A stretch of 64,000 nt of DNA from Prorocentrum cordatum. Lineage: Eukaryota. Positions 797 through 48,826 of the stretch are shown in pieces. The notes beneath the pieces are model-generated. The model saw only the letters and a list, made by a program, of their open reading frames with translations, made no database searches and was not told the origin of the DNA. Numbering within the stretch: the stretch's first letter is position 1; every line of letters starts with the position of its first letter. The stretch is from assembly GCA_963575745.1 (NCBI GenBank), contig CAUYUJ010000148.1, positions 124,001 through 188,000 on the forward strand, given 5' to 3'. The position numbers and the translations under genes were made by a program.

Positions 797-1171
797 TCAG
801 CCGGCCACCTCAGCCTGCAGTTCGGCGGCCCAGGCAAAGCGGTCCCCGCCGAGGGCGGTTCGCAGCTGCCGCGCCTTGGCGCGGTGCAGCGCGACGTTGA
901 GCTCAGCGGCCCAGCGCTGCGCCAGGGCGCTGGCCACCGCCGCGGCGCGCTCCTCGTCCACCAGTTCCGCTTGGTCCCGCGCGAGCTGGCGGCGGTAGCG
1001 CAGCGCCGCCCTGCGGGGCCCTGCCGCGCCGCCCGCCTGTTTCAACAGCAAGCGGCGCCAACGGTCAGGGGCAGCGGGCCTCGGGGTACCGCCGCCTCTC
1101 GTCGGCCTCGGCCGCGGCGTTGACCGCGCCCTCGCGCTGGGCCGCGGCGCCCAGCCCGTCGGCGTCTCCGG
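797..1171 (-). pseudogene. 3' end of a decayed RLE-type (CRE/R2-like) non-LTR retrotransposon ORF, downstream half of the split LINE
   Basis: Minus strand reads PGDADGLGAAAQREGAVNAAAEADERRRYPEARCP*PLAPLAVETGGR, then after a frameshift QRWAAELNVALHRAKARQL. This resembles the 'P.avEt.GR ... ls.al.r.nA' tail of restriction-like endonuclease LINEs. Confidence 0.7.
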
Positions 1172-1216
1172 CTTACTCAGCCACAGTGGTATTTTGGAAT
1201 GCTTGGGGCGGGCGGG
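1172..1216 (+). repeat. Left terminal inverted repeat
   Basis: CTTACTCAGCCACAGTGGTATTTTGGAATGCTTGGGGCGGGCGGG, preceded by CCGG. Confidence 0.93.
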
Positions 1217-1617
1217 ACATAAACAGCGGGGTGTTTATTTGGGAACGTGAAAGCGACTTCTCCAGAGGCAGAGGGCTTAATCGAAACATCAATTTAAGCA
1301 ACTCCTCCTCATCATCGTCGTCCTCCTCCTCCTTCTCCTGTTGCTCCTCCTCCTTCTCGTCCTCCTCCTCCTCCTCCTCCTCCTCCTCCTCCTCCTCCTC
1401 CTCTTCCTCCTCCTCCTCCTCCTCCTCCCCCTTTCAGCTGCAATGTTTGCGCTGTAGGTTCTGCCCCACTCACGGTAACAGCGCAAGTTTCTTGGAGGCC
1501 GAGGGAGCAGCAGCAGACAGATTCCCAGGAAGAGTTTCGACGAACGCACGTAGCGCTCAGGGCCACTTAGGGGCTTGAGGCTTGGGCCCCAAGGGGGCCT
1601 CCCCCTCCTCATCCTCC

Positions 1618-1638
1618 TCCGTAGCAGATCTACTCAAG
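1618..1638 (+). other. Degenerate spliced-leader relic upstream of ORF 1696
   Basis: TCCGTAGC-agatcta-CTCAAG: both SL ends are intact and the middle has diverged. Confidence 0.55.
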
Positions 1639-1695
1639 TTGTCAAGCAGTTCCTCTGTTCGGCTTTGAGTGCGCGAGATCGTACGCCTTTCCGCC

Positions 1696-2472
1696 ATGCC
1701 AGTGGTGGACTCCCGCAGCGCGACGCCATCGGCTGAGCAACCGCCGCCCGTCGCCGTCTACCTCAAAAACTTCAACGTATGGTACACCATGGACTTGGAA
1801 GTGCAGGAGAACTCGACGCTCGATAACCCGCTTCGTTTCCCTGTGATCCAGGCCAAGGAGCAGCTGTGCTTGCGCTTCAGCTGCTTTACTACCCCCGAGA
1901 AGGTGAATTTCGCCCGGTGCTCCGGACAGCGCGGCGCTGACCCGATTGGTGGCGCGCCGCTCGACAAGGATGGCTACGTGCTCTACACTTCTTGGTTCAT
2001 GGCGTGGGAGGACAACGGCAGCACCCCCGACTCGTCGTCGCATGACCACCTCGGCTCTAGCGGAGGCTCTGTGAACTACCGTCGCGGCCACGCTGGCACC
2101 GGCACTGTCAGCTCCATCGACGACGACGACGCGTCCCAGAGCGACCTCGAAGCCTACGTCCGCAGCCCCACTCAGACTCAGGCTCAGCGCTATGTCCAGC
2201 CTCCAGGGGACCGCCGTGCGTTCATTCAGGTCATGGTCTACGTGGAGGCGTGCGACGAGTGGGCCACGTTCGTCTTGCCCAATGCAACCCCGCCGACCAT
2301 CAAGGAACTCAAGATTGTGGTGGTGGGCAACATTCCAGACCCCGACCTCACGACGGACCATCTCGTCATCTGTACCATCGTCGATGGCCGCAAGTCCGAC
2401 GAGGTGCACGATCACACCCTGGTCTTGGACAACAAGCCGTGGCACATGGTGAGCTTGGAGGACGTCCAGTAA
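1696..2472 (+). CDS. Element cargo ORF, 258 aa, unknown function; possibly two ubiquitin-like (beta-grasp) domains separated by a Ser/Asp linker
   Basis: Uninterrupted, compositionally complex ORF with GC-rich third positions and GCCATG start. An SL-like relic lies at 1618-1638. The two halves resemble each other (VAVYLKNFNVWYTMDL...VIQAKEQL / IQVMVYVEACDEWATFVL...TIKELK). The fold is inference. Confidence 0.65.
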   Translation: MPVVDSRSATPSAEQPPPVAVYLKNFNVWYTMDLEVQENSTLDNPLRFPVIQAKEQLCLRFSCFTTPEKVNFARCSGQRGADPIGGAPLDKDGYVLYTSWFMAWEDNGSTPDSSSHDHLGSSGGSVNYRRGHAGTGTVSSIDDDDASQSDLEAYVRSPTQTQAQRYVQPPGDRRAFIQVMVYVEACDEWATFVLPNATPPTIKELKIVVVGNIPDPDLTTDHLVICTIVDGRKSDEVHDHTLVLDNKPWHMVSLEDVQ

Positions 2473-2964
2473 CGTAATAAGTGCTAGCCAGCGCGGCGGG
2501 CGATGCTGCCCAGCCGGCGCATGCAGCGAAGGGCGGGCGCGGCATTTTGCGTCTGAGCCCTTGCTTGCGAGCAAATCATTTTCCTCCGCCCTCTTTTTTC
2601 TCCTTCCCCCTCCTATCCATTCCAGGTATCCCCCATCCTCCTCCTCCTCCTCCCTCTCCCCGTCCCCCTCCTCGTCCTCCTCCTTATCTTCCTCCTCCTC
2701 CTATTCCTTTTCACTCTCTCTTCTTGCGTATGTACGCTACCCCTCTCACCTCCCATCGCCCCCTCCTTGGCAATCCGTGCTCGCCCTCCTCCCGTTCCCT
2801 TCTCTTCGGAGTCCAGGGCCCTGGGGGACGTCTTGGATCCAGGGTCCTCGGGAGGGCCCTGGAATCTTCTGAGGTCCCCAGGGGATTTCTTCTCGGCGCC
2901 CTCGGGGGCACGCTGAAATGGGAGGGAGACGACGGCGAACAGGGGGAGGAGGACGGGTGGGTGG

Positions 2965-3135
2965 AGGAGGAGGAGGAAGAGGAGGAGGAGGAGGAGGAGG
3001 AGGAGGAGGAGGAGGAGGAGGAGGAGGAGGAGGAGGAGGGGAGGAGGAGGAGGAGGAGGAGGAGGAGGAGGAGGAGAGGAGGAGGAGGAGGAGGAGGAGG
3101 AGGAGGAGGAGGAGGAGGTAGAGAGGAGGAGTAGG
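2965..3135. repeat. (GAG/CTC)n microsatellite, representative of many such tracts (e.g. ~140-265, 1305-1430, 9000-9160, 17945-18290, 36400-36470, 43260-43400)
   Basis: Direct reading. These tracts explain most poly-E/R/G/S/P/L ORFs in the six-frame track. Confidence 0.95.
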
Positions 3136-3809
3136 AGAGGCGTAGGAGGGGGAGGGTGGGGGAGGAGGGGGGGCAGGAGGTAGAGGAGGAGGGGGAGGAG
3201 CAGCAGCAGCAGCAGCAGCAGCAGAAGTTTTCGCGCGCCCTCGGCCTCTGGAGGCCGTTTTTGAGGTCGCAGGGGGTCGGACCGCCGCCGCGACCGTCGC
3301 CGCCGTCGTCGTCGCCGCCGCCTGTCGCCGCCGTCCTCGTCGACGCCGCCGTCCCTGGCCCCCGGCGGCGGGGTGCGGCGGCGCCGCCTTGGCCACGAAG
3401 CGCGGCCGCCGCCACGGGGGGGCGGCGCGCGCGGGGGGGCCCTCCTCCTCCTCCTCCTCCTCCTCCTCCTCCTACTCCTCCTCCCTCCTCCGCCCCTCCT
3501 CCTCTCTCCTCCTCCTCCTCCTCCCCCCTCCTCCTCCCCTCCCCCCCCCCCTCCTCCCTCCTCCTTCATCCTCGTCCCCTTTCTGATCCTCTCCTTCTCA
3601 TCCTTCGCCCCCCCCCTCTTCAAGCCCTCTCGACGGCGCTGGAGCGATGAGGGGGGGGGGGGGGGGGGGGGCGGAGGAGGCGATGAAGATGCGCGTGTGT
3701 TTTTCCATGGTGAGCTCATGGCCCAAGAAGTCCTACAAATGTCTGCGTGTTAACCACGAGTGACAATCCCGATTCACAGGCAACACAACTGACAAGGTCA
3801 GGCCTAACT

Positions 3810-4232
3810 TTAGTAGGGCATCCAACCACGCGTCATTCTCCTAAAAGCCACTATGCCCCATCTTGTGCGGCTAGCCTCACCCTGGCATTCGCTGAACATT
3901 GCCCTCGGACAGGTAGTCTTGACGTACTTACAGCACCTGATGCAGACGAGGATGTTTTTCATCTCGTTTCTGTTGTTGTCGCGGACTGCGGCAGCCCGGA
4001 GCTCGTGCGTCGGGTGAGCATTGGACACGATCCCGCGACGATAGATGTCTTCGTCGTCGTACTTCAGGCAAGATTGCCACGACTGTGGCAAGACGAGGCC
4101 GTTGCCCAAGTTGTTGCCGCGAAATCCCTCGGCGTCCTTAGGCGACCCCGGGCGATTTGGGTCTGACACGAGACTGTGTGGCGAGCTCGGGCGGCCCGAA
4201 GGATTGAACGGCAAATGATACAGCATTGACAT
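3810..4232 (-). CDS. Small cargo ORF (140 aa) with HxxH...CxxC...C putative zinc-binding motif
   Basis: HPTHEL...LVCIRCCKY...FSECQG...GWMP. A weak SL-like relic lies at 4279-4300. Confidence 0.4.
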   Translation of the reverse strand: MSMLYHLPFNPSGRPSSPHSLVSDPNRPGSPKDAEGFRGNNLGNGLVLPQSWQSCLKYDDEDIYRRGIVSNAHPTHELRAAAVRDNNRNEMKNILVCIRCCKYVKTTCPRAMFSECQGEASRTRWGIVAFRRMTRGWMPY

Positions 4233-4803
4233 TGCTGTGCTGGCCCTGGTTGTGAGGTTGGAGAAGAGCGAAACACAAAGAAAGCTAAAACAGCTATGAT
4301 GGGACGCGATGCCGATGAGATGGCAACGACGATGCTGCGGTGAGGAGGGAGGTGACGCGGCGACCTCGGGCCGATCGGCTTCATTGATGGGGCCGCCGGG
4401 GGGCCCGACCCCCTGGCGGCCTCAAAACGGCCTCCCGAGGCCGAGTGCGCAAGCAAAAGCTCTGGAGGTTTCAACGAGGTCCTTTCCTCCTCCTCCTCCT
4501 CCTCCTTCTCCCCCCATCTGCTCCTCTTCTGCTCATCCTCCGCCTCCTCCTCTCCAGCCCGTCGTCCTCCAGCCCTCTGGCCAGCGGCTGCCCTCCTCGT
4601 AGGCGCCTTCAATCCACGCCCCCCCCCCCCCCCCCTCTCTTCATCTGTCTCAGACGCCCGAGGGGGGGAAGAGGGGCACTGGAAGGCCCCGCCCCCCAGC
4701 GGAGGAGGCGGAGGTGGAGGGGGCGGAGGGGGGGGGGAGATAGTAGGAGGAGGAGGAGGGAGAGAGGACGAAAAGGAGGAGGAGGAGGAGGGGGCCAGGA
4801 ATG

Positions 4804-7800
4804 ATTTTTTAGTTCGCCGCGCACCCCCCAACGTCTACACGCTGAACGAACTTGAGGAAATCCCACCAGTCCAGCACGTGCCTTGCGACTGCAGGCGTTA
4901 AGGCTGGCTTTACAACCTCAGCCTCACGCTTCGTCGCTAGCCCCGATACACGCGCCTTTTTTTTGCCTCAGCTTTCGCCCTCTCGAAAGCGTCAGGGGGC
5001 CCTAATAAGGTCCACTGGCTTTGGGATTCGCCTGCGATGTTGCGCACCAGATCTGATAGGCGAGGGTTCGCAGCTCTGAAACGGTCGGACACCCGCACTT
5101 GTCGCAGCATACTGACTGCTGAGATGCACGAAATCACAGGCCCTGAACGCACGCCAAGGACAACCTCAGGCGTGCAGACAATACCACCTCGCAACACAGC
5201 GGCGGCCAGAATGTGATTGCCTGGGTCGGCTGGGTCGCTCACAACGAAAATGTCGGGAATGGTGTGCACACCGAACACGTTAGAACTCTCGACGCCACCA
5301 CTGCGAAGCTTTCTTCTGACAGGGCTGATCTGCGAGGGAGTCATCTCAGCCTCAGCGAAATAACAAAGCCCCCCCTTCAGCTGCGATATCGGCGGCAGGC
5401 GGCCACCTTCGACCTTCTTGTCTAAAGCCGCTTCCCTGTTGACCCGCTTGACTGCGAGGCCCCTCAAGTGCGCGCCGTAGTCGGTGGCCTTTGCCCGGAG
5501 GGATGGATCGGCATCAGCTTCCTCGTCGGTCAAGTGGTTGCTCAGGTGCGCCTCGAACCTGAACTTGGTAGCCTTCTGCGCCTGGAACGCGGCTTCCTTC
5601 TGGTGGCCATCGGTCCAGCTGGGGTCACCAGCAGTAGCTCCAGCACTCTCAATCCACGATGTCGAAGAGCGAGGCATCGCCAAAGCGTCCACGACGACCT
5701 TTTCCACGGCCGCCTTCCGTTTGCGAAGCCACGCCGTCGGTGTATTCGTTGACCCAGAGTTGGATGACCTACATGCCTTCCACTTGTCTACTGCTCCATC
5801 CCTGCTAACGCCGTAACACGAATTCCACACTTCTTGGGCTCGCTGGGCAATGCACAGGACTGAAGGTGTATCCTTAGGCCGATCGACAACCAATTTGATC
5901 TCATCGCATTCTGTCGATTCTGTCCCGTGCAATCTCCTGTCTCCGAAAACCCACATGCACTTTATGAAATCTTGTTCAATTCTTGAGGCGCAAGCTTTGA
6001 ATGTACTGAAGCGGTACAACAGCTTCTTCAGCTCATCATTCGAGGTTCGACAATCGGCGCTCTTGTTCATGGCATCTGACTTCGAAACGGCAAACTTCCA
6101 GCCATCGAGATTGGAGCAGTCCTCAGAATTCACGCGGGACTGGGCTGTTCGCCAATGAGAACCGAGCTGGGCCTTAAGCGCGGCCCCATCAAGTTTCAAT
6201 GCGCGTGCCAACTTTTTGATGTGGTGATCCCGACTGGCAATCGAATTTACACTCTCCCTAGCCCGCTGCTTCTTGAAGGAATTGCCCAAGCTCAATACAC
6301 AGAAACTTTGCAGCAACTCGAACGCAGGGTACTCAGCTTTGACAACCTGAATACAAAGTTTAACCCGCCGCCCCAGATGGCGCAAATTGTTCGTCACTAC
6401 ATCCATTGGAACACCCCCCCCCCGATTGCCCACTGCGTTGAACTTCCCGTTGCGCATCGGCAGTGTAACTGGATTGTTTTCAAGGTGTCCAACATGAACG
6501 AAGTGTAGCTGGTAATCGTCGTGATCGTGCCCTCTTGGTACAATTCGATAACCCGAATGAGAAAGTAGTACACGTCCGAGTTGATCTCGGCGGCGTCGGC
6601 GGAGTCAAAGTCGCCAGCTCATCGAGCAAATTCCAAGCCGTCGTCGGCGGCGTCAGCCATCATGCTCAAGAGCACCGCCTTGGACGTCGCGATAGTTTCG
6701 ATGAATGCCACGGCGTGGTGGGCGTCTGAGGACGTCCTCATGATACGCGCGTCGCGCGCCGTCAGGCAGAGCGGGGCGAACCAGAGCACCCACCTCACGA
6801 CGCGATCAAACCAGCCGTTGCCACCAAACTGTTTCTAACACACAACAAAAACCTTAGAGCCCGGGAAGGAGGCGGAGGAGGAGGAGGCGAAGGCGAAGGA
6901 GGAGGAGGGGGAGGAGTACTAGGACCCCATGCCCGCCACGGGCGGCCCGCCCCCTCCTTCGCCCCCTCCTCCCCCTTCCGCCGCCCCCTCTCCTCGTCCT
7001 CGAGTCTTCTTCTCCTCATCCCCGTCCTCCTCCTCTCCTCCTCCTCCTCCTCCTGCTCCTCCTCCTTCTCCCAACTCAACGTTATTGTGTTTCCCCTCCC
7101 CCCATGGGAGTTGCGTGGCATGGCTGGTTCTCCCGCGACTGGCGTGGCCCCCCACGGGCGCCGCATAGCTCTCGAAACGGTGTTTCGCTGAATGGAGACT
7201 CATCAGTGAAGAGTTGTTCCGCTTGAGCCCCTGGTCAAACTGGTCGCGCCGGTGGGTGACCAGATTTCGCAACACCAGCGAATGGTCGATCTTTTGAACG
7301 AATCTGTCCTTGCGAGTAAGGAAGAACTGGATCATGGCATTTATCTGGTCGTCAGCTTTCCAGGGTCTGCTCAACATCCTGGGGCGGGGGCGACGACGAC
7401 GACGGCGGCGGCGGCGGCGACGACGACGACGTCGACAACGACGACAACGACGACGATGACGACGAAGACGACGAAGACGACGATGACGTCGACGACGGCA
7501 ACGACGATACGACGAATACCATGCTGGCGACAACGAAGGTGTGAGGCGCCCCGTCGCCGTTGCTGATACCGCTCCCCCATCTCTCCCTGGGGTTTAGCGC
7601 TTTTGGGGGGTATTTCGGGGGACCTTCATTCAGCGCTGTCATTCATCGCCGTCGTCGTCGTCGTCGTCATATCATGATTTCATTTTACCCTCGTTAGTCC
7701 TTCTTGCTGCATGAGCTTTGTCCCTGACCAAAGCCTCCACGTTCGGCGCGATCGGGACGTTCCCGTTCGGCGGGTCAATCATGTCCCTAACTGATGCCAC

Positions 7801-8775
7801 CTCGTCAGACGCAGAGTCCGCGCAGACCATCCTGATCTGCTTCTTTATGTTCTCCAAGATGAAGGGCTCTAGCTTGCTCTTGGGCTCCGAACCTGGTTCT
7901 CGACGTGGAGGGCCGTGACTATTCACCGTGGCAATTCGTTCGATGATGTCTGAGGTTGCTGCTGCAATGGCAGGTGCTCCAGACCCGAGGTGTTTACGCA
8001 TGCCAAGGTGACCATGAAGCGCGTTCAACTCGGGGTCGCAGGCGCAGAACCGAACGGACAGGCGAGCGTGACGCTCGTCCCGAAATATGGCGATGCAAGT
8101 GGCTCGAGACAAAAACTCTCGGTCGCGTCGCCTCAATGCCTCGGCAATACACCAAACCATCTTTTGAAACTTGTGTTGGTGGCCAACATGCTCGATTCCA
8201 GCCCTCAGAGCAGTTCCTTTGCAGATCGTGTCCCACACCTTCACCAACATGTCTGCTGGGGGCGCTCCAATAACGACATTGCCAGTGGGGCCCGTGATAC
8301 CGCCGTGCTCTTCCAAGTATTTTCTGGTAGCGGCCTGGCGTTGCTTAGTACGGTGATGTTTCCTGAGGTTCACCAACTGCAGAGCATCGCTGGTTGTCAC
8401 GGCACAGGCGCCGCACGGACCTGGCGCCTGCGCTGCTTTGCAGCACACGCACCCCAACCCCCATTCACCAGAGGAACTGACGTGCCCAATCATCCATGTA
8501 GCAGGGACGATGCCGAGCATATTACAACCCAAATCACTATGGATCGCCAGCTCTCTGGTCCATTGGCGCTCGTGGCTGATGTACTTGCATCTGGCGCAAC
8601 CAGGGTTTTTGCAATATCTGTGATGAATGATATCATCTGCCAGCCCATGCCGCTGGTTGCCCTTGTCAAGTCGTTCCACCATGTGGGCCAATATTCGCGC
8701 CCGCCTGGCCCCAGTGACGCACAACCGGCGAGACCGCTTAAGATTCTTAGGGATCACATGTCGGTGCAACTCCAT
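4804..8775 (-). pseudogene. Intron-containing hAT-like DDE transposase with N-terminal Zn-finger-like and C-terminal BRCT-like regions; disrupted
   Basis: Exon 1 (8775-7700) has CKNPGCARC, GCVCCK..LRKHH, FRDERH, CADSASDE and RDKAH. Intron 7699-7379 is GA..AG. Exon 2 (7378-~7150) has MLSRPW and KHRFES, equivalent to the hAT RW-x-S motif. Exon 3 starts at 6793 and has ASRIEQDF, equivalent to ERxFS. Lesions: TGA at 6621-6619, frameshifts in the G10 run (6414-6423) and A run (~4960), and a damaged exon-2 donor. The 3' end is approximate. Confidence 0.75.
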
Positions 8776-8808
8776 GCGTGGGGCAGAGCGACAAACAAGA
8801 ATTGAATT

Positions 8809-8830
8809 ACTGAGCCAAAGCTGCTGCGGA
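8809..8830 (-). other. Degenerate spliced-leader relic upstream of the transposase
   Basis: TCCGCAGCAGCTTTGGCTCAGT, 16/22, ending 34 nt before the ATG at 8775. Confidence 0.65.
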
Positions 8831-9223
8831 CATCACCATCATCATCACATTCATCGTCGCCATCATCATCGTCCATCCATCACCCTACGAAGACCCCCCC
8901 TCCTTGCGCGAAGCTCCAGTGAGCGAAAAAACAGGGGATTCCACCCTGCCCGCCCCCGCTCCTCCAGCCTCCTCCTCCTTCTCTTCCTCCTCATCGAACC
9001 TCCTCCTCCTCTTCCCTCCCTCCTCCTCCTCCTCCTCCTCCTCCTCCTCATCTCCTCCTCCCTCCCCTCCTCCTCCTCTCTCCTCCTCCTCCTCCTCCTC
9101 CTCCTCCTCCTCCTCCTCCTCCTCCTCCTCCTCCTCCTCCTCCTCCTCATCCTCCTCCTCCTTCTCCTGCGTCCCCAGGCGCGAACTGCGGCTCCAGTGG
9201 AGCGAGACCCAGCCCTATGCAGT

Positions 9224-9612
9224 GAGCTACCACACCTCTCAACACGACCGCGCGCGCTACCACGCCTCTCAACACGACCGGTCGTTCAGGAATTCTCGGG
9301 CGTCCCTCTGAACAGGACCGGACGTTCAGGAATTCAAGGTCGTCCTGGCCTCTGAACACGACCGGACGTTCAGGAATTCCTGAACGTCCGGTCGCGTTGA
9401 GAGGTATATCCTCCTCCTCTTCCTCCCTTTTCCTCCCTCCTCCTCCCTCCTCCCTCCTCCCTCCTCTCTGTCGCCCTCCCTCCTCAGCTCAAATTCCTGA
9501 ACGTCCGGTCGTGTTCAGAGCCCTGGAAGCCAGGAGCCAATGAATTCCTGAACGTCCGGTCGTGTTCAGACGCCTGGCGACCGTGAGTTCCTGAACGTCC
9601 GGTCGCGTTGAA
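9224..9612. repeat. Mirror-symmetric array of a ~30-bp unit (CTCTSAACACGACCGGACGTTCAGGAATTC): 4 forward and 4 reverse copies centred on GAATTC
   Basis: Forward copies at ~9236 (partial), 9266, 9306 and 9350. Reverse copies at 9374, ~9491, 9542 and 9585. A 56-bp near-perfect palindrome spans 9349-9404. Confidence 0.9.
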
Positions 9613-9719
9613 GGGCGGGATGCTTAAATGTGAGCTTTCTCCGGAGACGAGCGTTTAAGTTGCTAGACTTCTCAGTAACCTCGCGGCCCCTTCGAGGCCA
9701 TCCTCCAAGTCCCATAGGC

Positions 9720-9935
9720 GGGCCTGTTGAGCCAGAGTGGTAGCGCTACCACCCTGGCTCAACGCGACGGGAGCTCCCGTCGTGTTCACTACCACGCCTG
9801 GTGGACCCAGGCCACTCTCGAACCCTGACCTCAGTCGCGCTGGCCAGCGTGCGAGGCGCGTGGTAGTGAACACGACGGGAGCTCCCGTCGTGTTGAGCCG
9901 CGGTGGTAGCGCTACCACTCCGCCTCAACAGGCCC
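9720..9935. repeat. 78-bp inverted repeat with 60-bp spacer; arms built from nested palindromes
   Basis: Arms at 9720-9797 and 9858-9935 each contain the palindromes GTGGTAGCGCTACCAC and CGACGGGAGCTCCCGTCG. They share AACACGAC and GCTACCAC motifs with the 9224-9612 array. Confidence 0.9.
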
Positions 9936-10469
9936 ATTGGCTGATCTTGAGATGGCCAACAGCCAACGGCCTGACGTCAGCCATGTCTTTATCTTGAGGC
10001 TCTCTTCAGAAGGCGATCCTTATCTGCGGCGGCTGTCCAGGGTCTGAGGAAGGAGGAAGGAGAGGAGGGAGGAAGGAGAGGAGGAAGGAGGAAGGAGAGG
10101 AGGAAGGAATGAATATGTCTGCTTGTTGCTGCGACGGTGGGCCGAGCTTGATTGGCTTCAGCTCTGGCCCTCAGCTCTGTTGTCGAACAGACACCTGGCA
10201 ACTAACTGCTGCACTGCCCTACCACTATGGGCCAGCCCGCATGCGTCCACGCGTGAGTAGGCACACTCGAGTCAAGCAACGCGTTGGCAGTCTGCTTCTT
10301 CAAACGCTGCGGATCCCCCGCAACATCTCATGACGCATTCGACGACAAGCGTCGCACTACAACCAACTCCTAGGTGCATAGAGTGTGTTCTGCAATGCCA
10401 GAAAGCTACCAGATGCCTGAAAAAAACGAGCTCAAGAGCGTGGTCGACCTGACGATGAGGCAATTCCGT

Positions 10470-13400
10470 TCATTCGACGTTGCTCAGAAGGCTGGCCAAG
10501 GCACCTGCTGCGGACCCGCTGGCGCCAGCATCGACACCGTCAGCGCCGCCGTCGGCACCCTCACTGCCGCTTTCGTCGCCCTCCTCGGCGGCGAACGCTT
10601 CTGCCAGAGGTCCCGCGCCGGACTCCGCAGCGGTCTTGGCGTGGGCTCTCTTCTTCGCCTCAGCTTTTGACTTCCGCTTCGCCGCCGCCGCAGCCTTCTT
10701 AGCCTCAACCTCGATCTTGCGCGCCTCCTCGGAGTTGGGGCCATCGCCCTCGTTCGTCTTCCCAGCCAAGAACCTGGCGTAGTTTGCGTGGTAGTGCTTG
10801 TGGCCCTCCGTCTTCATCATCACCATGAACTCCTTCACGAGGTGGGCCATTAACATCTGCTTGTGCTCTTCGTTCTGGAAGCAGATGCCCAGGTACCCGA
10901 TGCCCTTCCCGACGCAGTGGGGCGAGAAAACGCCACCGCCTGGCGTCAGATCCATGACTACTTTGGCGTAGTAGCTCGTCGTCAGCTCCTGGTAAAACTC
11001 CTTCGGCAGCTGGTGCCAGTTCACAGGCTCCGCACACACGTTCTTCTGAATGCCGCCGCTGCCCCTGCCCCCTCCGGCGATCTGGATATTGAGCTCTGGC
11101 TTGGGGATCTGCGCGTGGTTGCGGGTTGCGACGCCGTCCTCGTCGCCGCTCCCCTCGCCCTCGTCTGACGCATCTTCAGTGTCGATAGTTTTTCCACCCG
11201 CTGGCTTGCGGTTCGGACCGAGGAACTTCTTTTTGTCCTCGAACGGCAACTTCCAGCTGTCGTCCCACGACTCGTAGGTGATGGGGCCCATGGTGTCCCC
11301 GTTGTTGGGGCCAGGGTAGACGGCGCGCTTCTTCTCTGGGGTGACTGTGTCGATGGCGCGGTAGAAGTGAACGGTCTGGAGCTGCTTCAGAGACGAAATG
11401 CCCCGAACCAGAGCTCGACGGCCCTTCAAACTATCCTCGTCGAGGAACATGTGGGTCATGTTCCTCGCGACTCCCTCTGCCTGGCACGCGCTCTTCCAGC
11501 GACCCCTCCCTGTGACCATGATCTTGTTGATGACGCCCCCGGCGCCTCGCGTCGAGGATCGACCGCGCCCGCCTTCAAAAACTCACGACATCAAAAACTC
11601 GCCAGATTGAAACCCTGAAACCCGAAAGACAAAAACACACAGAGTCCCTGAGAGGCCCCGGGGGGATGGCAGGTGTTCGGTCTATCCGCGTACCTTTCTT
11701 GCCTCCGTCCAAGTACATGCACGCGCCCCCCTGGCTGAGGCGCCCGCTGTCATGGCCACCCCTGCGCCTGGCACTGATCACAGAGTTGAACAGCCGACCC
11801 AACTGATCCTTCCGGAAGGGCGCAGCACGAAGATGAGGCGCAGTCACCGGCTCGCCACTCAGCGTAACGCCCGCGTGGACAAGGATATGGCCTGTCATGT
11901 CGCCCTCCTCCATGCCGAGCGTAGTTTGCGCGATAGATGCCTGCAATGCTGCTTCGCTCTTCCCAGAGTCAGAGATCAGCTTCACGTAATCGGAGACCTT
12001 CTTCTGTGCGAACCTCAAGTACCACGCATCCACTGCGCCCTTGTTCCCTGGATCTTCAAGCGAGGCGGTGAAAGTCTGGGTCAAGGCTGGATCCCCCTCC
12101 TGACCTGCTGACAGCCGCGTGCGCTTCCTCGCTGGCCCCCCCTCGGCTTCCACCTTGTCGATCTCCTCGTCCTTCTTGGCCTTCTCAGCGTCATCAGCTG
12201 TCTGGCACTCCCAGACCTTGTCGATCTCCTCCTTATTGCCAGCGTGCTCCAACGTCTCCTCGGTGGACTTGCCCTTCCGGCAGCAGTAGCGCAGCTGCTG
12301 GTCGTACCCCCTCCCGAACGCGAGCCCCTCCGTCAATTCGAACATCGCCTTCTCGGAAGTCACTGCGCTAACCTTCCAATTGCTGTCGACCTCGATGTCA
12401 CCGGCCAGCGGCTCCACTTTCGTCCTGTACAAACGGTGTGAACTGAAAACTTCCTGGACAAACGCTTGCAGTTTGGGAGACCTGTACACCGCCAAAAACT
12501 CCCCATGCGTCAAGAACTCCCGGAGCTCTTTCTTGAACGCCAGCACATCAATCAGGCCCTTGTTGCCACCGATACCATCTTTCAAGTTCTTGAGCGTGAT
12601 CTCTCCGGTGTGCATGGCGCCAGACTCGCAGAGATCTATGATGCCGTTCAAAACCCAGTTGATCATCTTCTTGTCCTTGTTGCACCTCGAGACAATCAGG
12701 CTCAGCTTGTATACGCTCTCGAAGGGCCCCGATGAACCCCACTTAAGGGTTGCCATCCGGATGGCTGCGAGGTTGGGTTCGTACTTGATGGTGAGATCGA
12801 CGACAGACGACGCCGACTCGATGAAGGTCTTCGTGATCGGCTCCGCTTTCGAGTTCAACGCGATTTCCTTCTTGTACCACTCGAATAACGTATCGTTAGA
12901 GATCTTCTTTTCCTTGCCGCCGGTACCCCCAAGCCTTGCAAGTTTGGACCTGGTCTGCATAACCTTCGGGGCGCCACTGAAAACTGCCGCCACCGCCTGA
13001 CGTGACACACCCCTCGGGCCCGCTGACGAGGCCCCTGGAGCCCACAAGGGCTCACCCCCAAAACCCAGAGACGCACCGTTGCTGTCGAGGTGGCGGTGGC
13101 GTTTCTTTCAGCGATGCCCAGAGCCTCGCAGATACGCTGGAGCGTGTCGCGCCCGACAGCGGTTGCCTCTGACATGACCTGCTCCCTGAGGTTGATGCTG
13201 CGGGACCACGCTGTATCATCCTTGGCTTTGTGGACCTCAAACTGGAATGTCGTATTCAAGATATCCTTGCGGTACCCCTCGAGCGTCTGCTCCGATGCGC
13301 CATGCTCGATCGCGTCTTTGATGGCCAGCAGGCGTGCAAAGAAAGGTTCCTCTGGCGACAGGCGCTCCCAGTTGCCAGCGTTGGTCACGGGGTTGATTGC

Positions 13401-13797
13401 GGGGTCATCCGCGGCAGCCACGACGACGCCAACGTAGAGACCAGGCTCCCGGAAGCACGCGTGTTTCAGCTCCTGGATGTACGTCTCGTTGTAGGGAACG
13501 CCACCGTGGAAGGTGAAAAACAGGTTCCGGTTCCACTCGCTGGATGCGCACGTGTGCTTCTGAGTTCCGTTGGTCAGATCGTACTGGTACCTCTCCATGT
13601 TGAAAGCTGGCTGCGCTGGCCCCTTCCAGAAGACGGTGTCGAGCGCCTTCATCGCCCGCCGCGATCGGCTTGAAAACCTCGTGCTGCTTGACAATGTTCA
13701 TCGCAGACGTCACGTGAGCGATGAACTCCGCGTTGATGTTGTCAACGGGGTCAGCACTCAGCCTCGCCAGCTGTCCGACAGCCACACTTTCCGCCAT
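10470..13797 (-). pseudogene. Three-exon gene (~1000 aa) with putative ParB-like N-terminus, acidic linker and beta-class N6A/N4C methyltransferase-like C-terminal fold; one frameshift near 13660
   Basis: Exon 1 is 13797-13125 (GC donor). Exon 2 runs from 12996 or 12963 to 11694 (GT donor). Exon 3 runs from 11545 or 11572 to 10470. All junctions are phase-compatible with AG|G acceptors. The C-terminal WHQLPKEFYQEL...VMDLTPGGGVF...GIGYLGICF resembles the beta-class HP..KP...vlDpF.GsG...gr.yiGiE pattern. No DPPY motif was seen. Confidence 0.65.
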
Positions 13798-13874
13798 GAC
13801 ACAATGACTGCGTGGTGTACAAGTACTGAGACTCAGAGTGTCAAAGCGAAAGCTCAGAAACAGCCGAGCTCAAG

Positions 13875-13896
13875 CTGCGGCCAAAAGGGTCACGGA
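13875..13896 (-). other. Degenerate spliced-leader relic upstream of the ParB/MTase-like gene
   Basis: TCCGTGACCCTTTTGGCCGCAG, 16/22. Confidence 0.6.
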
Positions 13897-14407
13897 GGAG
13901 GTGGAGCAGTGGAGGGGCGGAGATGGGTGAAGAGAGTTGAGGAAGAAGGGAAACGGGAGTGATGGCCCTGTTGAGGGTCCCACGAGGACCTCGTTTGTGA
14001 AGAAGTCAGCTTCTCCCCTCCTCCTCCTTCCCTTCCTCCTTCTCCCCCTCCTCCTCCCGCGCATCCTCCCCCCGCACCTCCTCCTCCTCCTCCTCATCAT
14101 CATCACCACCATCATCCTCCTCCCCCCTGCTGCTGCCGGCGGATTTCGGGGATTGGTTCCGGGGCGAGAAGATCACTCGAGGGACGGGGTCGAGAGCTTA
14201 AGAACGCCGTAAAGACAAGGCCCCGCGGCTCGAAATCCACGTGGACAGATGAGGTCGAGAGCCATTGATGACGATGATGATGATGATGTGATGATGCTGA
14301 TGATGATGTTGTTGCGCTTTTTATGTTCACTCTATGGCAGTCACTTGCCCCTGCGCGTCCTGCGTAGCTGTACCTGCGCCGGCGCTGACTGACCACGCGA
14401 GTTTAAT

Positions 14408-15648
14408 CTACACCAGCGCGCCCCGGGACGCGACGATGCCGATGTGGCCGAGGACGCTTCGCACCAGCGGGCAAAGCGCGTTCACAGACATGGCGTTGCC
14501 CATCATGCGCCCCGCCCTCTGCTCGCTGACTTTCGCCTTCTCGAGCAGGTCGGCCTTGAAGTACCCGGCGCTGTAGCCTTGCAGCTGGGCAAGCTCGCCC
14601 ATGGTGACTTGTCTCCCGCGCGGCAGAATCCAGTGCCCCATGATAGCGCCGCGGCTCGCAGTGATCGTCGGGAAGGCACCCACTTTGTAGTTCAGCCTTT
14701 TGGTTGTGCAGCCGATGTCGATAACGATGTCCTTAGCCAATGCCACTCGTAGATCGCACTCGTCAGTGCACCGCTTGGCGAGATCTCTGACACATCCAAC
14801 CACGTTGGCGCGCGCGCGCTCTCCTTGGGAGGCAACCCGTTCGCGATGGCGTCGACCCCCGCCATGGTGGGCATTCCGACGATGTCACGAACCAGCCGGT
14901 GCACGCCGGTATAGGCGGGCCACTTGAACTCCTTCTTGGCTTGCTTCAAGTCTGATCGGAAACCCGCAACGTAGATGCGCTCCCTCTCTTGAGGGATTCC
15001 GAAGTCCGACGTCTTCAGCGCCTTGTAAGAGACCGAGTAGCCGCACTCCTTCAGGCACTTCAAGATGCACTCCCACACCTCTGCGAACTTGTCGGACAGG
15101 ATGCCGTTGACCATCTCCAAGATGAACGCCTTAGGCTTCACCTCCTCGATCGTCTGCACAGTCTGTAACCAGAGTTTGCCGCGATCGTCATGGGGCCCAT
15201 CTCCTTTGCCTCCCTTGGACCAAGGCTGGCACGGCGGCCCCCAGGCGTACAACTCGATGTCCTTCGGGAGCTGTTTGTTGTCGCGCTCCGTGATGTCTTC
15301 ATGGATCCCCGAATCAGGGTCCCCATATAGTTCTTTGAGGAGCCTCCTGCAGCTAGGGTTCTTCTCCGAACTGAAATGCCAGCGGTATGAAAACGATTCA
15401 GCAGTGAGCGCCGCCAAGACCGAGTCGCATCCAGCAAAATCACTCGCATAGGTCACATCCCACGAAGTGTTCTTGGATCGTCGAACCTTCTTCATCGGCT
15501 CCTCCTCCTGGACGCTGGCGGCGGCGGCGGGCCTCTTCTTGACCAGACGCGCGACAGCTGCAGGTCGCATTACAGAAGCCTTGGGACGTGGCACTGGCGG
15601 GGCCGCTGCGTCTTCAGAGTCAAGTTCGTCCTGCCACAGAAACGCCAT
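14408..15648 (-). pseudogene. DNA (cytosine-5) methyltransferase, prokaryote-like single domain; frameshifted in a (GC)6 run
   Basis: Ordered C5-MTase motifs: I SDFAGCD, II SSEK, III EDIT, IV GPPCQPWS, V DDRGKL, VI FILEMV (canonical ENV), VIII GIPQERERIY, IX RQVTMGELAQLQG, X MGNAMSV. Removing one GC unit at 14808-14819 fuses the two ORFs. Confidence 0.92.
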
Positions 15649-15707
15649 CACAATTGTGGGTAGTATGTATGTGCGAGACACAACAATGCAAACGTGAGTC
15701 GCGCTAG

Positions 15708-15729
15708 ACGAGCCATAACAGGCTTCGGA
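15708..15729 (-). other. Degenerate spliced-leader relic upstream of the C5-DNMT
   Basis: TCCGAAGCCTGTTATGGCTCGT, about 16 matches with one gap. Confidence 0.55.
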
Positions 15730-15863
15730 CGGGTGACATGCGATGGATGATTGACGATGATTGACGTGCCCCAAAGGATGTTTTGTTTAACCTTATGTCT
15801 CTGGACAGTTGTCGGGGTGGCCCCTCCCCCTCCTCCTCCTCTTCCTCCTTGGTCCTCCTCCGC

Positions 15864-15885
15864 CCCATAGCCGCTTTGGCTCAAA
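15864..15885 (+). other. Degenerate spliced-leader relic
   Basis: CCCATAGCCGCTTTGGCTCAAA, 17/22. Confidence 0.7.
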
Positions 15886-15938
15886 AAGGTGTCGCCCGCC
15901 GTCGGCGGCTACTGTAATGGTGGTTATTTCCAGCGGCC

Positions 15939-16609
15939 ATGCCGGACCTCCGCCCAGCATTCTCCCTCGGTCGAAAGCCATGCCGCGACCGCAACAGTGG
16001 GCGAGAGGAAAGCCACAAGGACAGCGAGCGCAAGGACAGGGAGCGCGGCAAGGACAGCGAGCGCGGCAAGGACAGCGAACGCAAGGACAGCCACCACCGC
16101 AAGAAGGACAGGGAGCGCAAGGACAGCGCGCGTAAGGACAGCGAGCGCCAGGACAGCGGCCGCCGCAGCCGCGGGCGCAAGGACAGCCGCCGCAGCCGCA
16201 GCGGGCGCAAGGACAGCCGCCTGGCAGCCGCGACGACGGGAAGAGCAGCAGCAGGATGCCGACGACGCCCAAGCGGCATCATCCGCCTGGGGAGCGGAGC
16301 TGGCCAGCGGGGGCGGCGGCGCCGCGTGACGACAGCAGTAGCCCCGGACGTCGTCGTGACCATCGTGGTGAGCAGAGCATTGTCAGCAAGATGAAGATCA
16401 CAGCGAGGCTACACCGCAATGTCAGTTCGAGCCCATTCCGCGGCCCGCTTGGGGAGTGGTCGGGTGGCCAAGATGGCCGCCCTTGCCCTTCGTGGATGGG
16501 TGGCGCCGCGCGGAAACGTCGAATGGAGCTACCTTCGCCGGACCTCGTCAAGTACTTCAGCGACGAGCGTGTGCCACCGCCGCCGCCATCCCCGTCGCCG
16601 AGTCTCTAG
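15939..16609 (+). pseudogene. Arg/Ser/Lys/Asp-rich low-complexity ORF (RKDSE repeats), probably frameshifted near 16225
   Basis: GCCATG start 54 nt after an SL-like relic at 15864-15885. Contains repeated GCAAGGACAG units. Function unknown, and it may be non-coding. Confidence 0.35.
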
Positions 16610-16843
16610 GTCTCTAGCCGTCGAGTTGTTGCCGCCCTGCGCTTTGTACAGCGGCGCGTCAAGAAGATGTTGTCTACGGGCGTTAGATTGAAAAGCTCTT
16701 GCCTGGCATGCTGGCCGTCGTCTCCCGAGGGTCGAAACGCAGGAGGGGGCGGGAGGCCGATGAGAAGGAATGGGCGGGAGGAGGAGGGGGTGTGTGGAGG
16801 AGGGGGCTCGACAACGGGTTCAAATCAAATCCCATGTGTCCGA

Positions 16844-16865
16844 TCTGTAGCCGTTTTGGCTCAAG
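16844..16865 (+). other. Dinoflagellate spliced-leader relic
   Basis: TCTGTAGCCGTTTTGGCTCAAG vs DCCGTAGCCATTTTGGCTCAAG, 20/22. Confidence 0.9.
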
Positions 16866-16874
16866 CCTCTACTG

Positions 16875-17904
16875 ATGCTCACTTGTTTCACAGTGAAAGC
16901 AGGGACCATCACTCTTCTCAGCGAGTCGGCTGCTCGGAAAGCAGCGCGGCGGGCAGCTCGTGCAGCGACGGCGTCTGACGCCGCGATACACCGGTCAAGG
17001 ACGCCGCCGAGGACACGGATCTGTCCACCGCCGAGCCGCCGCCGGAGCCGTCCACCGAGCCGTCTACCGAGCCGTCCACCGAGACGTTCACCAACGCGTC
17101 CACCGAGCCGTCCACCGAGACATTCACCGAGACGTCCACCGAGCCGCAGGACACCGAGGACACAGAGCCGTTCACTGAGCCGTCCCAAGACACCAAGCCG
17201 TTCAAGAACACCGAGCCGTTCACTGAGACGCCCCAAGACAACGATCCGTTCGAGACGTCCCTTCATGGAGGCCGACCCAGTCCAAGACGATCAACTTGCG
17301 AGTGGTGTTATCGAGGTCTTCATTCCAGATACGGAGCCAGGGGGTGAGCATTGGATTGGCGTGAATGGTGGTCAACCCCCAATACGAAGCGACAAACTGC
17401 TCGTGGCCGTCAAAGAGATCGAGTTCCCAGATCTAGACAGGACTAAACTCAATATATCATGGTACAAAAAGGACAAGTACGGCAACGTGGTGATGGGAGA
17501 AGATCTGTTTCCGTTGCGAGTGATGATCCCGAGCGGCTCTAAGGTCATGGTATGGCAGCGAGGACAACCTTACGCGAACCTCGTGTATGATAAAAGGGTT
17601 TCGCGAGTTGCCCTTGTGGCGGCCATCCCCGCCAACCGCCAGCGACGGCTTAGCATTGCCAAGAGGTTCTCTGAGGTCCGCATTCTCCGCCAGCATCATC
17701 CAGAAGCCCCATGTTGGGAAGAAAGCAAAGAAGTGTGCTCATCCAGACTTCTCGTTTCATGTGAATAGCGACAATTCCGTCGGCAAAGGGATGTACTGTT
17801 GCGAGAAGTGCGAGGGCCTGCATAAAGGCGAGTCTTGGGCGCAGAGCAAGAGGGGCAAGCGCCACTACAAGAACTGCGAGCAGATCGTGTTTCGCTCTGC
17901 CTAG
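16875..17904 (+). pseudogene. Cargo gene: RSP-rich N-terminus, globular middle domain and C-terminal Cys/His domain in a second frame
   Basis: ORF 16875-17768 begins 10 nt after a 20/22 SL match. The overlapping frame encodes KCAHPDFSFHVNSD...YCCEKCEG...RHYKNCE to the stop at 17904, implying a frameshift or small intron near 17650-17720. Confidence 0.55.
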
Positions 17905-18427
17905 CGCTGCAGCTGGAAAAATACAGCATCCCCCCTCCTTCCATCAACTCCTCCTCCTCCTCCTCCTCCTCCTCCTCCTCCTCCTCCTCTCCTCCTCCTC
18001 CTCCTCCTCCTCCTCCTCCTCCTCTTCCTCCTCCTCCTCCTCCTCCTCCTCCTCCTCCTCCTCCTCCCCCTCCTCCTCCTGGCGTCCAACCCAAAGAGGA
18101 GCACCGAGACTCCCTAGGGGGTGATAAGGATGAGGCGGCCCATGCGGCGGGGGGCGAGGAGGAGGAGGAGGAGGAGGAGGAGGAGGAGGAGGAGGAGGAA
18201 GAGGAGGAGGAGGAGGAGGAGGCAGAGGAGGAGGAGGAGGAGCCTGAGGAGGAGGAGGAGGAGGAGGAGGAGGAGGAGGAGGAGGCAGGCGCTGAAACGG
18301 GTGAAGCATTCCTTACGTAGTCAGCCTCCATGCACGAGTTTCCCTGGGAAGGTCACGCGCCACCGCCTGTCCAGGGGCGGGGGGCTTATTTCCTTAGCGG
18401 GACGTGGTTTGCTCAGGTGAACTACCC

Positions 18428-18472
18428 CCCTCCCGCCCCAAGCATTCCTAAATACCACTGTGGCTGAGTAAG
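18428..18472 (-). repeat. Right terminal inverted repeat
   Basis: Reverse complement reads CTTACTCAGCCACAGTGGTATTTAGGAATGCTTGGGGCGGGAGGG (2 mismatches to the left TIR). Followed by CCGG. Confidence 0.93.
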
Positions 18473-48804: not shown

Positions 48805-48826
48805 CTCGAGCCCAAATGGCTAAGGA
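48805..48826 (-). other. Spliced-leader relic upstream of the second DDE-like gene
   Basis: TCCTTAGCCATTTGGGCTCGAG, 19/22. Confidence 0.85.

Follow-up and report, generated by a model that had tools for sequence, protein, structure and literature searches.

The question raised by this locus is whether the 21-22-nt sequences that precede its genes are relics of the dinoflagellate spliced leader and, if so, how a gene cluster that includes a transposase-like gene came to carry them. An earlier note on the same DNA had claimed that every gene here is preceded by such a relic, and had proposed either that a mobile element was assembled from retrocopied cassettes or that it keeps the motif as a promoter or translation element. 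We analyzed the window, i.e., the whole 64,000-nt stretch, whose interval 1168-18476 contains seven gene units once split open reading frames are merged.

Leader positions 2-22 (21 nt) were used as the probe in a scan of both strands of the window, with 200 dinucleotide shuffles as the control. There were eight matches of at least 15/21, compared to a shuffle mean of 1.5 and a maximum of 5, and three of at least 17/21, compared to a mean of 0.015. Four sites, i.e., 16844+, 15864+, 8809-8830-, and 13875-13896-, retain 15-19 of the 21 leader bases, far above chance. A leader-like match lies 9-77 nt upstream of six of the seven gene units, measured from relic end to ATG, in close agreement with the 10-80 nt given before. 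A gapped score of at least 7 was reached in 6/7 of the 120-nt windows upstream of the units and in 4.1% of random windows (binomial 3e-8). Gapped scores of 7 and 8 arise about 30 and 9 times, respectively, per shuffled window, and eleven matches scoring at least 7 lie elsewhere in 1168-18476, away from gene starts. Since shuffled-window rates lead arithmetically to an expectation of about 8 such off-start matches, the weakest sites are inseparable from background by score alone.

Table 1. Gene units, putative leader relics, and inverted repeat arms in the interval (relic identities are given against the 22-nt leader or its positions 2-22)
Feature	Position	Strand	Description
Inverted repeat, left arm	1168-1216		49 nt by blastn, 96% identical to 18428-18476 inverted
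Relic before ORF A	1618-1638	+	21-mer with one deletion, 16/22 gapped; both ends intact, middle scrambled
ORF A	1696-2472	+	Orphan, 258 aa
ORF B	3810-4232	-	140 aa, doubtful gene
Claimed relic before ORF B	4279-4300	-	13/22 with gap, score 3
Gene T (first-stage ORFs C + D)	4937-8775	-	Transposase-like, broken
Relic before T	8809-8830	-	15/21 ungapped; 34 nt to ATG; P = 0.006
Gene EF (first-stage ORFs E + F)	10470-13797	-	One gene of ~1100 aa; frame changes
Relic before EF	13875-13896	-	15/21 ungapped; 77 nt to ATG; P = 0.011
Gene G	14408-15648	-	C5 cytosine DNA methyltransferase; PF00145, E = 3.9e-43
Weak leader-like match before G	15709-15730	-	Gapped score 7; 17/22 with gaps
Relic before unit H	15864-15885	+	17/21 ungapped; gapped score 13; P = 0.003
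ORF H	15939-16394	+	Based on 15-nt tandem repeat units; uncertain reading frame
Best-kept relic, before ORF I	16844-16865	+	19/21, or 20/22 with first base
ORF I	16875-17904	+	Orphan; overlapping frames 16875-17768 and 17527-17904
Inverted repeat, right arm	18428-18476		Partner of 1168-1216

The sites differ in how much of the leader they keep. The best-kept relic ends 9 nt before the ATG of ORF I (P = 0.0009), and the 20/22 identity previously noted for it was confirmed. The site upstream of ORF A, which ends 57 nt before the ATG, is probably a real relic: the pattern CCGTAGC-N5-10-CTCAAG, picked post hoc after this site had been seen, occurs once in the window compared to 0.02 expected, and was matched in 2 of 100 shuffles. 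The match before G, 60 nt from the ATG, is weak (P = 0.041, at a score expected some 30 times per window), and that before ORF B is at chance level (P = 0.48 against random upstream windows); a better leader-like match (4062-4083-, 15/21) lies within ORF B and not upstream of it. The claim that every gene has a relic was thus overstated, both because the support runs from strong (16844, 15864, 8809, 13875) through probable (1618) and weak (15709) to chance (4279), and because C with D, and E with F, each make up a single gene and ORF B is doubtful. The suspicion voiced with that claim, that the weaker hits are background, proved right for 4300, may apply to 15709, and fits poorly with the intact ends at 1618.

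On this sequence evidence, the 21-22-mers appear to be largely real relics of the dinoflagellate spliced leader, as had been supposed, and the phenomenon itself is already known. A GT donor follows none of these six sites, and a search of Rfam, which may contain no dinoflagellate SL-RNA family, gave no match at the gathering score. For these two reasons we rejected the reading of the relics as spliced-leader RNA genes.

The transposase-like gene T was assigned through its relatives. The relative P0003 is collinear with T at 8706-7696, 7374-7150, and 6801-6406, and lacks the two stop-bearing microsatellite blocks (7375-7695 and 6802-7149) found in the window copy. T is further broken by a stop codon (TGA, 6619-6621) and by a change of frame in a C10 run (6413-6422); carrying these two lesions and the two insertions, it is incapable of moving its own copy. 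A structural model of P0003 (pLDDT 67) retrieved the Hermes hAT transposase in all of the top 10 Foldseek rows (probability 0.97-1.0) and in the five best VIA rows (Z 9.0-10.0, rmsd 7.3-7.7 A over 272-283 residues); the VIA row ranked below these has a Z of 7.2. At fold level, this model shows a DDE transposase in which a helical domain is inserted into an RNase H-like core, and the acidic motifs FRDER and VDSASDE are invariant in the family. By fold only, the T family would therefore be a hAT-like transposase closest to Hermes. Pfam detected no hAT C-terminal dimerisation domain in the window ORFs or in eight relatives; its matches among those relatives were weak ones to zf-C17orf113 (E = 0.004-0.08) in four of the eight, with no others.

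Two further genes are of methyltransferase type. Besides the cytosine methyltransferase (DNMT) G, which has a frame change near 14806-14820, EF belongs to a family with 610 representatives at E <= 0.001, one of which, P0018 (1072 aa), is collinear with it over 13613-13062, 13032-11698, 11525-11136, and 11042-10734. Residues 541-990 of the P0018 model (pLDDT 79) match beta-class N6A/N4C DNA methyltransferases, with Z scores of 15.9 for CcrM (rmsd 3.6 A over 219 residues), 14.9 for M.BceJIV, 14.8 for EcoP15I Mod, and 13.8 for PvuII. The model shows both the methyltransferase fold and a SAM-binding motif, the latter conserved in the family as IDLTPG[DS]G or similar. A second conserved motif, xPP[LF]R, reads AAPF in the window copy, compared to (D/N/S)PP(Y/F/W) for the reference catalytic motif, and 12 long relatives gave no match to any Pfam family. 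EF is thus predicted to encode a protein with an N6/N4-methyltransferase-like domain and no evident canonical catalytic motif.

The remaining units gave little to identify them. No Pfam family was found in ORFs A, B, H, or I, no homolog of ORF A in a word-seeded search, and neither a homolog nor an atlas lead for ORF I. Several frames are open across the tandem repeat of ORF H, which spans 16016-16217. Allowing for the blocks and frame changes of T, EF, and G, the units are uninterrupted, T alone having two stop-bearing blocks. Assembly errors may account for the frame changes seen at homopolymer and (GC)n runs.

The putative element status of the 17.3-kb interval rests on one 49-bp inverted repeat that brackets it with no target-site duplication, since the flanking 8-mers (1160-1167 and 18477-18484) differ. 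A 23-nt core of the repeat occurs exactly twice in the window, compared to 0 expected, and was found neither in viral_contigs nor in 51 relative loci. The features shared with the hAT superfamily are the Hermes-like fold, the RNase H-like core split by an all-helical domain, and the bracketing inverted repeats; in contrast, no Pfam hAT domain and no 8-bp target-site duplication were found here, and two methyltransferase-type genes are carried. Both the 49-bp repeat and the 17.3-kb interval are above usual hAT sizes. Pfam searches of 13 ORFs in 1696-17904 gave only PF00145, so that the interval shows neither a reverse transcriptase nor a tyrosine recombinase; the nearest RVT_1 match is a LINE-like ORF at 55525-56238, ~37 kb away.

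Distant relatives from metagenomes show that the association of these genes is old. In 6 of 30 dereplicated groups of relatives, at 27-37% protein identity to the query, T has a C5-DNMT as its same-strand neighbor, and in one of these six an EF-like gene joins the pair. With relatives this divergent and relics still 15-19/21 intact, the linkage predates the relics. The earlier observation that a relic heads the transposase-like gene holds, and extends to relatives, where co-oriented relics lie just upstream of T in L001 (18/21), L003, L006, and L007 (16/21), L022 (18/21), and L020 (gapped score 13). Relics were also seen upstream of a DNMT-T fusion in L023 and L032 (16/21) and of the DNMT in L008 (17/21). 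Among the 51 loci, all four matches with a gapped score of at least 13 are on the gene strand; at a score of at least 9, the gene strand has 16 and the opposite strand 15, and such weak matches are uninformative. Relics are not a constant trait of the T family, as a score of 7 upstream of T is reached in only 5 of the 23 lineages that could be evaluated, and a score of 11 in two.

We consider it fairly probable that, in this dinoflagellate nuclear DNA, mRNA recycling left relics on genes that were already clustered; the copy is now decaying. Mature trans-spliced mRNA would be reverse-transcribed, by an enzyme acting in trans such as that of the LINE-like ORF, and the cDNA would return to the genome with its leader. 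Because the linkage of the three genes goes back much further than the relics do, such cDNAs may have replaced, or re-inserted beside, genes already in the cluster, a process that the literature terms mRNA recycling; it is only this age gap that suggests recycling in place. The units with relics are of two sorts, namely the old linked genes (T, DNMT, and EF) and the orphan ORFs A, H, and I, and the best-kept relics (H and I) may stem from more recent retro-insertion of orphan transcripts. The broken transposase gene would reflect the decay of this copy of the cluster. The two intron-like blocks of T would be unexpected in a fresh cDNA copy and are possibly later insertions. Available excerpts of one study report that retrogenes may contain introns and frequently insert close to the parent gene (PMC5585692).

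An alternative is that separate retrocopies, the transposase included, were brought side by side within a transposon, so that the decay of each relic records the order of capture. This agrees with the microsatellite blocks that separate the units, a CT-rich tract immediately 5' of relics A, H, and EF, the spread of relic identity from 19/21 to about 15/21, and the absence of homologs of A and I, as might be expected of late captures. We nevertheless judge it unlikely. Chance assembly would not recur, yet T and DNMT are same-strand neighbors in relatives, and the relics of an ancestral assembly would be long erased; linkage older than the relics thus argues against unrelated cassettes and favors cDNA recycling of resident cluster genes. 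Moreover, in L004/L005 the three genes are linked with no relic at any of them at a score of at least 9, and the units are flanked by neither poly(A) remnants nor target-site duplications, A5-6 runs following only 3 of 6 units; this last observation also speaks against the recycling reading.

The motif may instead be under selection as a cis element, either a basal promoter with a TTT(T/G) core or a trans-splice acceptor with an internal AG, which would be compatible with a retrocopy origin. A promoter role has been put forward in the literature (available excerpts of PMC5585692), the TTTGG core is retained in four of six relics (I, H, T, and EF) and the AG at leader positions 6-7 in five of six, and the stretch ATTTTGGC is identical in L001 and L003 despite differences at 6 of 21 relic positions. 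Against this, the two loci are 85.5% identical over 1425 nt, which exceeds the 15/21 of the relic itself, and a motif so seldom detected upstream of T across lineages lends little support to retention as a promoter or translation element; we regard this reading as quite improbable. Finally, chance resemblance in GC-rich, repeat-rich DNA, to which the site before ORF B, the background of scores 7-8, and the eleven off-start matches might be ascribed, is extremely improbable as a general account given the matches of at least 17/21, the upstream enrichment, and the recurrence of the motif in the same place in relatives, and it was rejected for 16844, 15864, 8809, and 13875, stands for 4300, and is possible for 15709.

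Work on dinoflagellate retrogenes (PMC5585692; Stephens et al., 2020, PMC7245778) describes the same arrangement: a co-oriented, partly decayed 22-nt leader less than 100 nt upstream of the start codon, preferential retention of the TTTGG core, and retrogenes close together. We found a co-oriented leader sequence a short way upstream of the coding region at I, H, T, EF, and A, weakly at G, and not at B. In contrast to those retrogenes, the relics here head genes of a transposon-like cluster (a transposase, a DNMT, and a methyltransferase-like protein) and none is in tandem within the interval. They also precede 6/7 neighboring units, compared to a genome-wide rate in Symbiodiniaceae of ~1 gene in 5 (over 20% of genes have relics within 500 bp, according to available excerpts of PMC5585692). 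Since leader relics are already accepted as marking dinoflagellate mRNA recycling, the finding is another case and no new principle. Less ordinary is their place in front of three genes that are linked in distant relatives, one transposase-like, one for a cytosine methyltransferase, and one for another methyltransferase-like protein.

It is conceivable, if doubtful, that the locus represents an undescribed dinoflagellate family of large hAT-like transposons with a C5-DNMT and a beta-class N6/N4-methyltransferase-like protein, whose trans-spliced genes are renewed in place, time and again, by leader-capped cDNAs of their own; a cut-and-paste element would then keep its genes alive via an RNA route. 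SymbioLINE-Dnmt and SymbioDIRS-Dnmt3 (PMC5890265) are likewise mobile-element-like dinoflagellate units with an intron-poor C5-DNMT, and the dual-methyltransferase EpiLTRs (bioRxiv 10.64898/2026.05.21.726589) share a second, adenine/N4-type methyltransferase-like module. Unlike in the DNMT-bearing retrotransposons, the partner here is a DDE-type transposase-like gene, with no reverse transcriptase or tyrosine recombinase beside it, and, unlike in these and the EpiLTRs, the methyltransferase-like protein has no evident canonical catalytic motif. Should the linked genes prove to be a mobile unit, DNMT capture by dinoflagellate elements would extend from retrotransposons to a DNA transposon, and the locus would offer a concrete place for asking whether cDNA recycling acts in place.

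The window is treated here as dinoflagellate nuclear DNA. Its base composition is about 60% G+C, GAG/CCT microsatellites are abundant, and the 22-nt dinoflagellate spliced leader recurs within it in several close copies. Both strands were scanned without gaps for leader positions 2-22 (21 nt), with 200 dinucleotide-preserving shuffles of the window as background. Eight matches reached at least 15/21 compared to a shuffle mean of 1.5, and three reached at least 17/21 compared to a mean of 0.015. At a threshold of at least 14/21 there were 25 matches compared to a mean of 9.3; nine of these are copies within a tandem array at 21.8-23.0 kb, in which an 89-nt unit recurs about 15 times at 92-97% identity; every unit contains a 14/21 leader-like stretch (CCATTTTGGCGCACC) that inflates low-threshold counts. 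A gapped score (+1, -1, -2; background from 60 shuffles) gave 8 for site 1618+ and 7 for site 15709- (named by start and strand); a shuffled window yields about nine gapped matches at 8 or above and about 30 at 7 or above, and these two sites are inseparable from background by score alone. Eleven further gapped matches of at least 7 lie distant from gene starts in the interval of about 17.3 kb between the inverted-repeat arms. Enrichment over shuffled controls thus holds for the strong sites, but not, by score, for 1618+ and 15709-. The earlier note's own reservation, that equally good matches might occur at background frequency regardless of gene starts, applies to these two by score alone and to site 4300- (13/22, gapped), which is at chance level.

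The weak scores of 1618+ and 15709- are uninformative alone, and their position upstream of start codons alters that picture. We compared the best gapped score within 120 nt upstream of seven start codons with random windows. A score of at least 7 was found upstream of six of the seven units, compared to 4.1% of random windows (binomial 3e-8). The claim that a relic (a decayed genomic copy of the leader) precedes every gene of the interval is overstated: six units have a leader-like match upstream, that of G being weak, and the claim failed for ORF B, where the match is at chance. The spacing of 10-80 nt proposed for these relics agrees with the 9-77 nt that we measured from relic to ATG.

Coordinates and leader-match scores of features in the window (upstream scores are gapped)
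Feature	Coordinates	Strand	Ungapped leader match	Best upstream score	Random-window P
Inverted-repeat arms	1168-1216, 18428-18476
CCT-type tract, unit A	1580-1617	+
Unit A (ORF)				8	0.026
Unit B (ORF)				3	0.48
Leader match	4062	-	15/21
Unit T (transposase-like)	8775 to 4937	-		10	0.006
Segments of T aligned to relative P0003	8706-7696, 7374-7150, 6801-6406	-
Blocks in T	7375-7695, 6802-7149
TGA in T	6619-6621
C10 run in T	6413-6422
Leader match	8809	-	15/21
Repeated 40-44-nt unit	9263-9614
Complementary arms	9265-9378, 9492-9614
Second palindrome	9726-9920
Unit EF (methyltransferase-like)	13797 to 10470	-		9	0.011
Leader match	13875	-	15/21
CCT-type tract, unit EF	13897-13960	-
Unit G (C5-DNMT)	15648 to 14408	-		7	0.041
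CCT-type tract, unit H	15815-15863	+
Unit H (ORF)				13	0.003
Leader match	15864	+	17/21
Unit I (ORF)				17	0.0009
Leader match	16844	+	19/21
89-nt tandem array	21736-23106
Leader match	31024	+	15/21
Leader match	48630-48651	-	15/21
ORF start	near 48749	-
Leader match	48805-48826	-	18/21
Reverse transcriptase ORF	55525-56238	+

TTTGG is preserved in four of the six relics and the internal AG in five. Site 1618 carries exact leader sequence at both ends, and the pattern CCGTAGC-N5-10-CTCAAG, picked after this site was seen, occurs once in the window compared to 0.02 expected. Pyrimidine-rich CCT-type tracts adjoin the 5' edges of the relics of A, H, and EF, so that the internal AG lies behind a polypyrimidine run in a splice-acceptor-like arrangement; the relics of T and G have (GAT)-type repeats ahead of them instead. 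Leader-RNA genes were ruled out, since a GT donor follows none of the six sites. An Rfam search of the whole window returned no family reaching its gathering score.

Collinear relatives led us to merge first-stage ORFs into single genes. A 631-aa relative (P0003) is collinear with T, in one frame, over three segments separated by two stop-bearing microsatellite blocks of 321 and 348 nt; P0003 is gapless at both positions, the blocks falling exactly between its adjacent residues. The blocks are mostly (GTC)n and (CCT/GAG)n and leave the frame unchanged; they could be young introns (with possible GA...AG and G...AG ends) or disabling microsatellite insertions. In addition, T is interrupted by a TGA in conserved sequence and shifts frame at the C10 run. 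A structure model of P0003, built from 13 sequences (pLDDT 67), comprises three strands, a helix-strand-helix-strand segment, and a long helical domain. The best 10 Foldseek rows were all the Hermes hAT transposase (probability 0.97-1.0, E from 6e-5), with low TM scores of 0.16-0.30, and the five best VIA rows were likewise Hermes (Z 9.0-10.0, rmsd 7.3-7.7 A, 272-283 residues), followed by a row at Z 7.2. Searches of Pfam gave no hAT domain, with weak zf-C17orf113 matches alone in four of eight T relatives, and the transposase profile had no sequence match in the PDB. T is predicted to be hAT-like, by its fold only.

EF is a single gene of about 1100 aa, with which a 1072-aa relative (P0018) is collinear over three frame changes. 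Its family comprises 610 representatives (E <= 0.001), and no Pfam family was found among 12 long members. Residues 541-990 of the P0018 model (pLDDT 79, pTM 0.77) match beta-class N6-adenine and N4-cytosine DNA methyltransferases, i.e., CcrM (Z 15.9, rmsd 3.6 A, 219 residues), M.BceJIV (Z 14.9), EcoP15I Mod (Z 14.8), and PvuII (Z 13.8), with MT-A70 enzymes at Z of about 9-10. Family members have a conserved SAM-motif-like IDLTPG[DS]G; the canonical catalytic (D/N/S)PP(Y/F) is not evident. An atlas lead points in the same direction, methyltransferase, with a weak score (0.77), and the EF profile gave only noise in the PDB by sequence (E = 0.3-0.4). G encodes a C5 cytosine methyltransferase (PF00145, E = 3.9e-43), and its frame changes at a (GC)n run. 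No Pfam family was found for A, H, or I, and homolog searches restricted to certain length bands returned nothing for A and I at E <= 0.001; the atlas best score for the C-terminal part of I (0.83) was uninformative. A 15-nt tandem repeat underlies H, which is open in several frames, and B is doubtful as a gene.

We then examined whether these genes are linked elsewhere. The transposase alignment was used to scan metagenome contigs; of 392 pattern-matching stretches, 51 were loci with T relatives (27-37% identity to the query), and dereplication at 85% or more DNA identity across 500 nt or more reduced these to 30 groups. The DNMT adjoins T on the same strand in six of the 30 groups (L001/L003/L006/L007; L004/L005; L008; L009; L046; and, as a fusion, L011/L023/L029/L032), and an EF-like gene follows in one (L004/L005); these counts are lower bounds, since most contigs are too short for neighbors to show. 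The window's minus strand reads DNMT, EF, T, a rotation of the order T, DNMT, EF in L004/L005. In L023, L029, and L032, the N-terminal half of the DNMT (residues ~65-189) is joined directly to the C-terminal portion of the transposase's N-domain (residues ~255-362), apparently a DNMT-transposase fusion or deletion derivative. A, B, H, and I had no match among the 51 loci, and the 15 loci of at least 4 kb contained no inverted repeats other than one weak 55-nt pair in L033.

The relatives also carry co-oriented relics. Those immediately 5' of T score 18/21 in L001, 16/21 in L003/L006/L007, 18/21 in L022, and 13 (gapped) in L020; one of 16/21 precedes the DNMT-T fusion in L023/L032, and one of 17/21 precedes the DNMT in L008. 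With ATGs called automatically and crudely, the 200 nt upstream of T scored at least 7 in five of 23 evaluable groups, compared to 6.9% of random windows, and at least 11 in two of 23, compared to 0.7%; the L001 relic, 227 nt upstream, falls beyond this range. Across the 51 loci, the gene strand had 16 matches of at least 9 and the opposite strand 15; at 13 or above the counts were four and zero. L020 and L022 are 94% identical and have the relic and its upstream sequence in common. L001 and L003 are 85.5% identical over a 1425-nt stretch; between them the relic is alignable and its flanks are not; six of the 21 relic positions differ and ATTTTGGC is preserved. The relic frequency in the T family is of the same order as that given for all genes in Symbiodiniaceae, where one study reports relics within 500 bp of >20% of genes, a laxer criterion (PMC5585692).

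The earlier observation is partly confirmed and its interpretation partly supported. The T-DNMT(-EF) linkage is found repeatedly among proteins of only about 30% identity and is therefore much older than relics that are still 15-19/21 intact, which argues against construction of the cluster from unrelated retrocopied cassettes. We favor a model in which cDNAs would return onto or beside genes already present in the cluster. This would fit the reported tendency of retrogenes to land close to their parents and the possibility that they contain introns (PMC5585692). H and I, orphans with the best relics, are plausibly later retro-insertions. Against cDNA return stand the intron-like blocks in T and the finding that the surroundings of the six units contain low-complexity k-mers and A5-6 runs but no poly(A) tails or target-site duplications. 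Frame changes lie at 6413-6422 and at about 14806-14820, 13650, and 13050, and some frame changes may be assembly errors. That the TTT(T/G) core of the relic acts as a promoter, a role already published (PMC5585692), is neither supported nor excluded.

Spliced-leader relics are of a known kind, as three reports indicate (PMC5585692, PMC7245778, PMC9651163), and the locus is a moderately interesting further instance. A noteworthy side finding is the conserved cluster of a hAT-like transposase, a C5-DNMT, and a ~1100-aa beta-class-methyltransferase-like protein. These genes co-occur on one strand both in the window (4937-15648, minus) and in distant metagenome relatives (linkage in L001, L003-L009, L023, L029, L032, and L046), the DNMT beside the transposase in six groups of relatives and the large protein in one. 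Dinoflagellate mobile elements that have captured a DNMT are known among retrotransposons (PMC5890265), and a 2026 preprint described retrotransposons with two methyltransferases in a green alga and Euglena (10.64898/2026.05.21.726589); at title and abstract level, we recognized no dinoflagellate DNA-transposon-like cluster with a DNMT. A DNMT retrotransposon was ruled out here, since the interval lacks reverse transcriptase.

The interval is bounded by a 49-bp inverted repeat (96% identical) and has denser long ORFs than the remaining window. The flanking 8-mers are not alike and similarity ends abruptly on both sides; it is about an even chance that the repeats delimit a true transposon. Neither the inverted-repeat core, the transposase alignment, nor ORF F (a first-stage ORF within EF) had a match in viral_contigs. 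The stretch between T and EF contains direct and inverted copies of a 40-44-nt unit (core GAATTCCTGAACGTCCGGTCG), with arms 82% complementary, and then a second palindrome, a structure that looks like a foldback or MITE. Elsewhere in the window, an ORF for a LINE-like reverse transcriptase (RVT_1, E = 1.9e-16) could have supplied in trans the reverse transcription needed to form relics. Also outside the interval, the 18/21 relic and a 15/21 match 150 nt downstream of it precede a minus-strand ORF that is another retrogene, possibly recycled twice.
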